Origin: an uncultured Bacillota bacterium
GTDB lineage: Bacteria > Sysuimicrobiota > Sysuimicrobiia > Sysuimicrobiales > Segetimicrobiaceae
DNA: 64,000 bases
NCBI GenBank assembly: GCA_963804645.1
Contig: CAWDRG010000017.1
Coordinates: 544,001-608,000 of the forward strand
Direction: 5' to 3'
The notes under the pieces were generated by a model, which saw only the letters and a program-made list of their open reading frames with translations, was not told where the DNA came from and did no database searches. Shown piece after piece: positions 1-4,883 of this stretch. Position 1 is the first letter of the stretch; every line of letters begins with the position of its first letter. A program made the translations under genes and the position numbers.

Positions 1-294
1 CAGCACCGTGAAGTCCTGTGAAAATACGTACGTCAGGCGGCCGTTGATCGCCCCATACCCGGTGACGACGCCGTCGGCGGGAGCCTCGATCCGGTCCATG
101 CCAAACGCCGTCGCGCGGTGGGTGACGAACTGGTCGAGCTCAACGAAGCTCCCGGGATCCAGCAGCTCCGCGACGCGCTCGCGGGCCGTCAGTTTGCCGG
201 CATCGTGCTGGCGGGCGGTCCGCTCGGGGCCGCCGCCCGCCGAGATGCGGGCCTTGCGCGCGCGCAGATCCGCGAGGCGCCCGTCCTCCGGCAC
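1..294 (-). CDS. Acyl-CoA (propionyl/methylmalonyl-CoA) carboxyltransferase beta subunit, N-terminal part; runs off the window edge
   Basis: Not in the ORF track. Manual translation from GTG at 294: [121 protein letters not shown] and QDFTV are typical PccB/MmdA motifs. Confidence 0.92.
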
Positions 295-301
295 CGGGCG
301 G

Positions 302-1639
302 CTAGGCCTGCCCCGAGCCGTCCATCATTGGGCGGATCGACAGGATGGCGTGCTTGTAGACCAGCTCCGTGGCGCCCTGCACGTCGAGCAGCAGGCTGTA
401 CGTCCCGACATCTCGCAGCACCGCGCGCGCCACCTCGTAGCCGTCCACGCAGCGCACGTGGACCGGCGTGCGGTTCGCGATGAGTGATTGATAAAACACG
501 TCCTCCATGGAGTGCCGGTTCGGAGTCGTGGACGTGCTTCCGGCGCGCGGAGCTTCCTGTCGCACTGTCGCTGTCACCCCTTCCTGTCCGGGCCGAATGT
601 CGCGTAAGTGTCGAATGATATCGGGGTCATCGGGGATGGGCGTCGTCCGTCCCGAGTTCGCCCGCGGCAGGGTCTCGGACACGCTGCCCACGCGCATGTC
701 CACCGCGGTCGCGGTAGAGGCCCGTGTCCGCGAGCGTGACGCGGCCTCCGGCTCATGCCATTCCTCCAGCACCTCGCCCCCATCCACCTCGCTCCCCTCC
801 TCGGACGCCGTCGGCGCGGGGGCGCGCGCGGTGCGTGGGTGCCGTTCGACCCATTCACCCTCGGACGGCGCTGCGTGCGACGGCGCGGGCGGGGTCCCGG
901 CGTGCGGCGGCTCGACGCGCTCCGCGGATCGCGCGTACTGGCGCATCGCCTCGAGCCGCGCACGGCGATCGCCCACGGGCAGCGGCGTCGCCGTCAACCC
1001 CGCGCGCATCGCCCACTTGACGACGGCGTCGAGGGCCGCCTCCACCATCGCGTCGGACGTGGATTCGGCCTGCGCGATGCCGAGCGACGTCTCCGGACCG
1101 CGCGGCATCGCGATCGAGATGCCGCACAGCGCGGTCGGCCGGTTGACGAACATCACGAGCGACGCCTGCTGGACCGTGATTTTCCGGTGGGCGGGCTCGA
1201 GCGCATCGCGGGCCGCGTCGACCGTTGCGGCCGCCAGCGCGCGGAATCGGTGCTGCGAGCCGGCCCCGCCGCGCGCGCGTCCCGTCGACGTGCGGTCCTC
1301 GCCGCCGCGGGCCCACGCGAGTTGGACGGTCGCGGTCATCTCCGTGGCCGCGACCGTCTCCTCGACGCGGAGGATCTGAAACCGCGGCAGCTCGCCCGGC
1401 CCGATGCCGGCGCGCGGCTGCGTGACTTCGATCCGCCACGGTTCGATCGGAATTCCGTACGTGCTCACGAGCGCCGCCGCGATCCCGCGCCGCACGGCCC
1501 GGACGTCCGCGCCGTGTTCGGCCGTCACATACACCTTCGCGACCTCGCCGGCCGGCGTAGTGAACACCCGCGCCGCGGCGACGCCGTCGAGGGTCCCGAG
1601 AAAACGCTCGATCTCTTCGGCGAAGACTTCCTTGGGCAT
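302..1639 (-). CDS. Multidomain protein: N-terminal conserved-hypothetical domain, Pro/Ala/Glu-rich linker, C-terminal Hfq (Sm-like) domain
   Basis: ATG at 1639 (MPKEVFAEE...), 445 aa. The C-terminus [60 protein letters not shown] follows the Hfq pattern, including the Sm2 YKHAI motif. Confidence 0.8.
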
Positions 1640-1750
1640 GGTCGCGCTATTTTCTCCCAGACACGGGCGGCTCCCTGCCTGACTTCGTCCGGGGCGCCGC
1701 ATCGCACACCGCACGCGTGTGCGGTGCGGCCGGGCTCGGGAATAGCCGGC

Positions 1751-2349
1751 TCAGAACGCCGGCATCGTTGCGGGGCGCTCGATCGGGGCGTCCACCATGA
1801 CGCCCTCACCGCCCAGGGCCCGCACGCGGCGGCCGTCGATCATGATCTGCACGGCCCGCACGTCTGGCGTCTGCGTGGCCGTGTACACGAGCTGCCACAC
1901 CCGGGCCAGCATGCTCGTGCTGCCGCCGCCCTGGGCAAAGGACCCCGTCAGATCTACCGTGGCCGTCCCGCCGGCCACCTCGAGGCGCCGCAGCGACGTC
2001 CCGCGGGGCACCTCGCTGACCAGCCCCTCGCGCCGCTCCGCCGCCGACGGACCGGCCAGCAGCGCGCGCACCGCCGACGTGATCCGCGCCGCCGGCCCGC
2101 CCGAGGGGACGGTGCGGTGGACCGCGACGAGCGATCCGGTCTCCGCGCTCCCCGTGTAGCGGACGAAAAACACCTCGACCGTGGCCTCGGCGGGCGGGCG
2201 GTGCGGCAGGGATCCCGGCCCCCGCAGCAGCCGCGCGGCGATCAGCCCCCCGACGATCACCACCGCCAGGACCAGCAGCCACCACGGGCGGCTCGCCGTG
2301 CGCTTCCGGGCACGCCGGCGCTCCCCGCCGCCGCGGCGCCGTGCGGGCA

Positions 2350-2350
<1 letters not shown>
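1751..2350 (-). CDS. GerMN-domain membrane-anchored protein
   Basis: Basic N-terminus, one TM helix (WWLLVLAVVIVGGLIAA), then ALLAGPSAAE...ATVDLTGSFAQGGGSTSMLARVWQLVYTATQ...VQIMIDG, typical of GerMN. Its ATG overlaps the ligA stop (TGATG). Confidence 0.85.

Positions 2351-4883
<2,533 letters not shown>

Follow-up and report, generated by a model that had tools for sequence, protein, structure and literature searches.

The gene at positions 302 to 1,639 on the minus strand of the window, that is, of the whole 64,000-nucleotide stretch of contig CAWDRG010000017.1 that was analysed, encodes a protein of 445 amino acids in which an Hfq RNA-chaperone domain stands at the C-terminal end, behind a folded two-domain N-terminal module (N-module) and a disordered spacer. 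The fusion is a genuine gene and not an assembly error, and, as far as sequence comparisons can tell, it is the usual Hfq of the phylum CSP1-3 (Sysuimicrobiota), to which the source organism, an uncultured soil bacterium, belongs. We propose, with evenly balanced confidence, that the protein would form an Sm ring of six subunits, from whose proximal side six tethered sensor modules would extend and pair, thereby gating the ring or cross-linking it to others. The gene and its parts are the following, with AlphaFold2 confidence given as predicted local distance difference test (pLDDT):

302..1639, minus strand: whole gene, fusion of N-module, spacer and Hfq, 445 amino acids, stop codon at 302-304
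1412..1639, minus strand: N-module domain 1, residues 1-76, ferredoxin-like alpha-beta-beta-alpha-beta fold (AlphaFold2, pLDDT ~90)
986..1390, minus strand: N-module domain 2, residues 84-218, (beta-beta-beta-alpha)x2 fold resembling the LeuA allosteric domain (fold matches, hhalign, predicted dimer)
917..970, minus strand: helix DRRxxLExMR, residues 224-241 (conserved in the fused family, beyond the reach of the matches of stand-alone relatives)
521..913, minus strand: disordered spacer of variable length, residues 243-373 (pLDDT <50, poorly conserved sequence)
563..628, minus strand: short conserved spacer motif, residues 338-359 (alignment of 50 loci)
329..508, minus strand: Hfq/Sm domain, residues 378-437 (PF17209, Hfqs in the PDB, model pLDDT 90-94)

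An earlier note on this DNA had assigned the last approximately 68 residues to Hfq, and the profile search that it proposed confirms this assignment: Pfam PF17209 matches residues 380-438, scoring 29.9 bits when the whole protein is searched and 35.1 bits when the search is restricted to the domain, above the cut-off of 27. The domain also aligns with the solved Hfqs 6gwk (Caulobacter), 4y91 (Thermotoga) and 1kq1 (S. aureus) with E-values of 1.4e-5 to 7.1e-5 and shares with them an identical YKHAI sequence, the Sm2 motif, which occupies residues 428-432 of this protein. In the full-length AlphaFold2 model, built on a 30-sequence alignment, residues 1-241 are folded (pLDDT mostly >90), residues 243-373 have a pLDDT below 50, and residues 378-437 reach 90-94 and adopt the Sm fold, consisting of a helix (378-388) and five strands (392-397, 402-410, 415-420, 423-428 and 432-437). 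Set against this model, the layout that had been read from the translation, a domain of about 210 residues followed by a linker of about 150 and an Hfq part of about 68, is correct to within about 30 residues. Among 50 related loci, obtained by scanning one genome per prokaryotic species, residues E379, L386, H394, R396, C397, G400, Y401, E402, E425, K429 and H430 are invariant, position 428 is phenylalanine in 39 and tyrosine in 11, and Y414 is kept in 44. Since this aromatic residue and the lysine and histidine of YKHAI are conserved, the protein keeps the uridine-pocket signature of known Hfqs. Furthermore, the block H-x-R-C-R-D-G-Y-E is invariant on the strand corresponding to the distal RNA face of known Hfqs.

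The minus-strand frame is open without a stop from 302 to 1714, as seen in the open-frame listing and the translation. Relatives all open with MP(K/R)EV, in its longer form MP(K/R)EVFAE; therefore, the start was placed at the ATG at 1639, which yields 445 amino acids, and a GGGAG sequence is found 14 nucleotides 5' of this codon. A search of a large protein collection returned 79 homologues of 250-480 amino acids, and the 30 that were aligned have the same layout from end to end. The N-module profile and the Hfq profile match within one stop-free frame in 46 of the 50 related loci; three others lie at contig ends (L013 and L045, both from one metagenome-assembled genome (MAG), and L017) and one contains a frameshift (L014). 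The latter (L014:5965-7072) is located within the N-domain, outside the spacer, and puts residues 1-89 into another frame, reflecting either a sequencing error or a pseudogene. It could be argued that an error of sequencing or assembly within the GC-rich spacer has merged two adjacent genes, and the spacer is indeed of low complexity, has a GC content of ~73% and is poorly conserved. This explanation is essentially refuted by the single frame found in 46 of 50 independent species genomes, by frames of 365-908 amino acids found across the phylum, and by an independent short-read contig from a peat metagenome (X1 record 1), which spans positions 250-1590 with 13 substitutions and 0 gaps; moreover, no indels relative to this gene are listed in any of four independent metagenome assembly runs. 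The uninterrupted linker that the earlier note had described for this one gene is thus a feature of the 46 related loci and of the peat contig as well, and the relatives of identical architecture that it suggested looking for were found, both in these loci and in the 79 homologues. Three contigs from metatranscriptome libraries lie on positions 529-759, 920-1063 and 1597-1796; as their coverage is partial and DNA carry-over is possible, they provide a weak hint of transcription of the fusion gene. A scan of window positions 1-2600 for promoters and terminators found none.

The 50 loci bear the taxon labels Armatimonadota, 'Bacillati bacterium ANGP1', Bacillota, Candidatus Fervidifonticultor, Calidihabitans and Geohabitans. 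Coordinate matches identify five differently labelled records as genomes of the window's own phylum set, and the MAG 'Armatimonadetes bacterium CSP1-3' also belongs to this set (locus L033 equals genome G011). According to PMC11604079, the Candidatus genera named above constitute the phylum CSP1-3, which has been given the name Sysuimicrobiota. The phylum set comprises 94 genomes; the tallies include two unpublished ones (G025 and G017), on which no conclusion rests. In the genome of the window, which is 96.8% complete, the fusion is the only Hfq match. Pfam Hfq matches are present in 64 of the 94 genomes, nearly all of them within frames of 365-908 amino acids, and a profile built from the family itself finds a match in 79 genomes (E <=1e-45 in 75), including all six genomes of a sister genus that were missed by Pfam. 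Neither the fusion, nor a stand-alone relative of its N-module, nor a Pfam Hfq match was found in families f5 (0/12; G080-G091, most of them at least 94% complete) and f7 (0/1; G093). The sole canonical short Hfq among the 94 genomes is an 81-amino acid frame with 103.9 bits (G056:C156:1965-2150); the same genome also carries the fused form, and the short gene could be a bin contamination or a horizontal acquisition. In one sister genus (g2), five of the six genomes contain, beside the full-length gene, extra frames of 75-183 amino acids that match the Hfq part only (E 1e-17 to 5e-25; G063:C1:11311-11577, G058:C251:13903-14082, G061:C38:64268-64444, G060:C67:5546-5791 and G062:C29:9664-10059). 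These short frames may represent a secondary stand-alone copy derived from the fusion.

The N-module on its own was modelled with a 48-sequence alignment and a pLDDT of 83.9. Pfam and NCBIfam searches assign it to no family, its sequence profile finds nothing below an E-value of 0.35 in the PDB, and the ESM Atlas returned for it only clusters annotated as 'hypothetical protein' (scores 0.90-0.91); matches to Ribosomal_S30AE, seen for 3 of 48 sequences at E 0.019, were taken as chance. Domain 1 resembles the C-terminal domains of CDF metal transporters (9jj3_A, Z 9.1 over 73 amino acids with a root mean square deviation (rmsd) of 2.6; 6vd9_A, Z 8.8), but it also matches C-terminal subdomains of ANL enzymes (Z 7-9) and the ring motif of EscJ (Z 7.7). 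With Z-scores of 7-9 to many unrelated families, its assignment as a ring-building motif, a CDF C-terminal domain or an ANL subdomain was rejected; domain 1 is therefore regarded as a common fold, from which no function is drawn. Residues R24, G31, R50 and R69 are invariant in this domain.

Domain 2, in turn, adopts the fold of the allosteric domain of LeuA and CimA. It superimposes on M. tuberculosis LeuA (3fig_A) with a Z-score of 9.2 over 109 residues and an rmsd of 2.5 A, and on the regulatory domain of Leptospira citramalate synthase (LiCMS; 3f6g_B) with a Z-score of 9.0 over 109 of 115 residues and an rmsd of 3.0 A; in Foldseek searches, LeuA chains are ranked at the top (E 2e-5). A sequence link is obtained through a family of stand-alone relatives of the N-module: in hhalign comparisons, the fused N-modules match this family with a probability of 100% (E 6.7e-40, 208 columns), and the family in turn matches a LeuA_dimer alignment, built from 24 allosteric domains of LeuA and CimA proteins of the phylum, with a probability of 90.2% (E 1.5e-6, 114 columns). 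The Pfam model PF08502 (LeuA_dimer) matches 9 of 51 stand-alone relatives below its threshold (best E 2.5e-4, 21.4 bits versus the required 24.9), and in 21 of 21 related genomes it finds only true LeuA/CimA genes. Taken together, profile comparisons point to a remote homology between domain 2 and the LeuA/CimA allosteric domains by way of this transitive link. The earlier note had called the N-domain loosely like the LeuA regulatory domain, which turns out to be right in fold and, at the level of remote transitive homology, in descent, albeit below the PF08502 thresholds. The two proteins differ in their surroundings and in a key loop: no catalytic barrel is detected by Pfam in the fusion protein, and the GDGPVDA loop, which is invariant in the 24 LeuA/CimA domains and is the site of feedback-resistant LeuA mutations, is replaced in the N-module by a longer, arginine-rich loop (residues 120-133, G-x-A-R...R-x-R). 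For this reason, leucine is an unlikely ligand. Arginines are invariant at positions 24, 50, 69 and 131 and near-invariant at 91, 123 and 133, and it is a reasonable guess from this pattern that the ligand of the N-module would be anionic.

The same arginines might also be taken as the mark of a second nucleic-acid-binding unit, built from beta-beta-beta-alpha repeats like those of double-stranded RNA-binding domains (dsRBDs), RAD52 or PUR proteins, so that the fusion would possess two RNA-binding surfaces. Foldseek matches to the dsRBD protein 8dfv_K (E 1.7e-4) and to PUR-alpha, as well as structural matches to RAD52 (Z 7.7 over 77 amino acids, rmsd 2.7) and to the Dicer dsRBD (Z 7.2 over 54 amino acids, rmsd 1.4), are in line with this idea. 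However, these matches cover only half of the domain with template modelling (TM) scores of 0.15-0.25, whereas the regulatory domains of LeuA and LiCMS match over its whole length, with higher Z-scores and in agreement with the sequence profiles, and the N-module is near neutral with a median isoelectric point (pI) of 6.3. We therefore consider a nucleic-acid-binding N-module very unlikely. Between domain 2 and the spacer, the models contain a further helix (DRRxxLExMR), which spans residues 225-241; R225 is invariant, and D224 and E230 are conserved in at least 90% of the sequences. The matches of the stand-alone relatives stop near position 212 of the N-module profile.

When read against 1.84 billion cluster representatives, the N-module profile matches 2307 proteins at E <=1e-3, of which 921 remain at E <=1e-10. 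Among the matches listed, those ranking below the fused family are stand-alone proteins of ~205-260 amino acids, which align to profile positions ~5-215, belong to no Pfam or NCBIfam family and are called 'hypothetical protein' wherever they are named, for instance in the cultured genera Carboxydocella, Dethiobacter and Caloranaerobacter, in Coriobacteriia and in many MAGs. They contain the same two domains in the same order as the N-module and have their own signature motifs (EIHVLA, PKQIVRD and DHKKISVAQ); in contrast to the fusion, they lack the spacer and the Hfq domain. By profile comparison, the N-module is a divergent copy of this widespread two-domain family of ~215 amino acids. The genome of the window itself encodes such a paralogue (G000:C1:58305-58955, minus strand; L054:1519-2175 and L159:5324-5980), a protein of 218 amino acids with 29% identity over 212 amino acids, which scores 176 bits with the stand-alone profile versus 97 bits with the fused profile. 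The paralogue gene is located directly upstream of secA and lnt. In 80 stand-alone loci (L055-L134), the neighbours of which were clustered and identified by a Pfam check of one representative per cluster, a gene for a MASE9-HD-GYP membrane protein lies downstream in 55, a long-form ribosome hibernation factor (HPF) gene upstream in 28 and a gene for a DUF5317 membrane protein downstream in 25; the stand-alone genes usually stand between hpf and the MASE9-HD-GYP gene and never beside hfq. This context hints at a role in stationary-phase or cyclic-nucleotide biology; a survey of HD-GYP proteins contains no discussion of the stand-alone family as a neighbour gene. No Hfq was detected beside the stand-alone relatives in any of 80 metagenome loci at E <=0.01, using a profile from the divergent fused family that could miss a very different Hfq.

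Two N-modules are predicted to pair symmetrically via the second half of domain 2, with contacts at residues 157-190, 204 and 208. The homodimer obtained a score of 0.71, compared to 0.00 for the best of three controls, the runs agree in at least 40% of the contacts, and the partner chain has a pLDDT of at least 74. Of 30 proteins solved as same-chain pairs, 20 pass the mark applied here, compared to 1 of 23 proteins with a single-chain structure; these counts are approximate, because the analysis used an alignment of its own. The prediction supports pairing of the N-module. It had been suggested that the N-domain could serve as a ligand-sensing or scaffolding module; the scaffolding, or dimerising, part of this suggestion gains support from the predicted homodimer, while the sensing part stays at the reasonable guess of an anionic ligand.

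How such a protein might work can be outlined as follows. An ancestor of most CSP1-3/Sysuimicrobiota would have fused its Hfq gene to a copy of a stand-alone protein with a ferredoxin-like and a LeuA-allosteric-type domain. The C-terminal Sm domains presumably assemble into the usual hexameric Hfq ring. In Hfq, the N-terminus projects from the proximal face, where the U-rich 3' ends of RNAs are normally held; hence, the six spacers with their conserved motifs and basic R-x4-R segments would crowd this face. The six N-modules are predicted to pair via their LeuA-type domains, either as three dimers per ring or between rings, and a small anionic ligand bound to the LeuA-type domain would probably control this pairing. 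Pairing or ligand binding could then set the access to the RNA faces or the cross-linking of rings into larger RNA-protein assemblies. A more far-reaching version, to which we give little credence, is a ligand-gated multivalent scaffold that would have taken the place of ordinary Hfq in the phylum. Six-fold Sm rings and two-fold LeuA-type sensor dimers on disordered tethers would then respond to a metabolite or nucleotide signal by building networks or condensates of RNA and protein, as a bacterial equivalent of eukaryotic LSm scaffolds of the Edc3 type, and the stand-alone parent would be a new, widespread receptor for small molecules with a link to ribosome hibernation or to cyclic-nucleotide signalling.

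The proposal of a hexameric ring with pairing sensor modules builds on the observed architecture and its conservation, on the folds of the domains, on the remote homology to LeuA and on the dimer prediction; the hexamer itself, RNA binding, the ligand and the regulatory coupling are what we infer from them, and several observations weigh against it. Compared directly with the LeuA_dimer alignment, the fused N-modules reach an hhalign probability of only 3.3%, and PF08502 matches none of 48. LeuA regulatory domains have been solved as dimers, and the success of the dimer prediction may partly reflect the likeness to these structures. Because the stand-alone relatives adjoin hfq in none of the 80 loci, the N-module type has no independent functional link with Hfq outside the fusion, and the full-length monomer model contains no confident contact of the spacer motif with either domain. 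The remaining points concern the Hfq core. NCBIfam Hfq models match it, but below their equivalog cut-offs; TIGR02383, for instance, yields 36.3 bits for the whole protein and 41.4 bits for the domain against a cut-off of 61.7. All 50 loci have a glutamate at the position where 6gwk, 4y91 and 1kq1 have the glutamine of the (L/I)QD motif in the N-terminal helix, which we take, from work on E. coli, to contact uridine. The core is acidic, with a median pI of 5.8, a median net charge of -2 and a pI below 7 in 49 of 50 cores, and the rim segment I-A-N-R, which corresponds to the arginine patch of E. coli Hfq, contains at most one arginine in this gene. Judged by these residues, the Hfq core is atypical. 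It is closer to the weakly annealing Hfqs of Gram-positive bacteria than to the E. coli type.

The acidic core, the invariant glutamate, the lack of a rim arginine patch (at its presumed positions) and the missed equivalog cut-off would all fit a protein in which the Sm domain is mainly an oligomerisation platform instead of an RNA chaperone, the N-module functions as it does in the stand-alone family and the ring serves to present six copies of it. The size of the stand-alone family (the 2307 matches), with a genomic context of its own (HD-GYP in 55 and HPF in 28 of 80 loci), would fit this as well, and cyanobacterial Hfq is known to act through protein partners. However, the protein retains the YKHAI motif, with K429 and H430 in 50/50 sequences, and the aromatic residue of the pocket, Y414, in 44/50; the H-x-R-C-R-D-G-Y-E block on the distal-face strand is invariant, and the genome encodes no second Hfq that could do the RNA job. 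A mere platform is thus an unlikely role for the Sm domain.

The spacer varies in length, with 46-146 amino acids (median 85.5, n=48 sequences) between the two profile matches. It contains a short motif with the family consensus (E/Q)IRPE(R)xGGAA, located ~25-35 residues ahead of the Sm helix and here at residues 347-359; in the conserved stretch of residues 338-359 that includes it, D340, P350 and G354 are each conserved in at least 90% of the sequences; a basic R-x4-R segment follows immediately before the Sm helix. The motif is unfolded in the monomer model and overlaps a candidate internal start site. It is conceivable that the gene yields two products, the full-length fusion and a normal-sized Hfq translated from an in-frame start ~20 codons before the Sm helix, so that the number of N-modules per ring would vary. 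Indeed, an in-frame ATG, GTG or TTG located 9-12 codons past the IRP motif is preceded by a Shine-Dalgarno (SD)-like match (at least 5 nucleotides at a spacing of 4-12 nucleotides) in 26 of 50 loci, compared to 39 of 933 other in-frame start codons of the same genes, and valine at this site is encoded by GTG in 20 of 29 cases versus 44% in the same genes. However, the peptide E-G-G-A-A-(M/V) by itself yields GAGGG plus ATG or GTG, and for 15 of 23 preceding arginines the codon is CGT or CGA, whereas CGG, which would strengthen the SD sequence, is depleted (17% versus 35%). Moreover, the gene described here has merely a GTG with a 4-nucleotide AGGA, the sequences are related and the counts thus overstate the signal, and the codon of M378 is one that can start translation (ATG or GTG) in no more than 30 of 50 loci and lacks an SD sequence. 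A second product of this kind is therefore quite unlikely, and M378 itself was rejected as an internal start on these grounds. In the arginine codon before the E/Q/P-G-G of the spacer motif (window positions 563-628; loci L002-L051), the rare codons CGT and CGA make up 15 of 23, compared to 18% combined in the same genes, an excess that suggests selection at the nucleotide level.

The genes surrounding the fusion are arranged as follows:

1..294, minus strand: gene start of an acyl-CoA carboxyltransferase (PccB-like), downstream (Pfam Carboxyl_trans, E 1.6e-202 on L052:8744-10294)
1751..2344, minus strand: protein with a GerM (Germane) domain, upstream, start approximate (Pfam PF10646, E 1.1e-21)
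2350..4551, minus strand: NAD-dependent DNA ligase LigA, further upstream (Pfam ligase domains)

Neighbours were counted by tblastn with the named proteins, since spurious GC-rich frames merged clusters in a frame-based grouping. GerM is encoded upstream on the same strand in 46 of the 50 loci (38 clearly upstream and 8 counted inside owing to over-long frames), LigA upstream in 41 (40 upstream and 1 inside owing to an over-long frame) and PccB downstream in 44. The pccB gene is followed by genes for a biotin carboxylase, a biotin carboxyl carrier protein (BCCP), methylmalonyl-CoA mutase (MCM) and by meaB, and the cluster runs past the window. We read the order ligA-gerM-fusion-pccB as inherited, phylum-wide synteny; as a functional clue for the fusion, the neighbourhood was rejected, since the order is conserved and no RNA-metabolism genes are near.

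In its Sm fold with a helix and five strands, its YKHAI motif, its aromatic pocket residue and its presence as a single copy in the genome, the fusion resembles canonical bacterial Hfq. In contrast to the latter, which is extended by a C-terminal tail, it has an N-terminal extension of 377 amino acids that includes two folded domains, an acidic core with a glutamate instead of the LQD/IQD glutamine and a score below the TIGR02383 cut-off, and neither miaA nor hflX is found as a neighbour at its locus. With the allosteric domain of LeuA and CimA (PF08502; 3fig and 3f6g), it shares the (beta-beta-beta-alpha)x2 fold; profile comparisons via the stand-alone relatives point to a remote homology, and a homodimer is predicted, but the N-module lacks the TIM-barrel enzyme, stays below the Pfam threshold and has the arginine-rich loop instead of GDGPVDA. 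A further comparison can be drawn to Edc3, a eukaryotic scaffold composed of an LSm domain, a disordered linker and a dimerising YjeF-N domain, whose multivalency can build RNA-protein granules. The shared logic of an Sm-type domain, a disordered linker and a separate dimerisation domain is an analogy only, as the domain order is reversed, the dimerisation folds are unrelated and the homology is limited to the Sm fold. Mura et al. (PMC3710371) describe archaeal plasmid proteins in which a zinc finger precedes an Hfq-like domain, and a Pyrobaculum protein, SmAP3, that contains an Sm domain and an additional C-terminal alpha/beta domain. As in the fusion, an Sm or Hfq-like domain is joined to another folded domain, in the plasmid proteins even with the Hfq-like domain at the C-terminus; however, the partner is a C2H2 zinc finger or an alpha/beta domain, and the proteins are archaeal or plasmid-borne, whereas the fusion is the only Hfq on the chromosome and serves a bacterial phylum. 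Literature searches turned up no bacterial Hfq in which a folded domain stands at the N-terminus, and the word 'Hfq' is absent from the main text of the CSP1-3 genomics papers, the supplements of which might list the gene. Thus, Sm fusions as such are already known, and what appears to be new is a bacterial Hfq with a folded, LeuA-like N-module as the default Hfq of a phylum.

Hfq is the best-studied bacterial RNA chaperone, and its known variation lies almost entirely in the disordered C-terminal tail. A phylum with abundant members in soil and hot-spring habitats seems to have, as its only Hfq, a form with a folded, predicted-dimerising module of a sensor type at the opposite end, and this end adjoins the face that normally binds the 3' ends of small RNAs. 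If the N-module responds to a ligand, the fusion would be the first Hfq under direct signal control; if the N-module only cross-links rings, it would provide a natural test of multivalency in bacterial RNA-protein assemblies. In addition, the analysis draws attention to a large family of proteins that contain a LeuA-type domain, are encoded in a conserved genomic context and are covered by no Pfam or NCBIfam model. For RNA biologists, the idea of a regulated Hfq thereby becomes directly testable in the default Hfq of an uncultured phylum.

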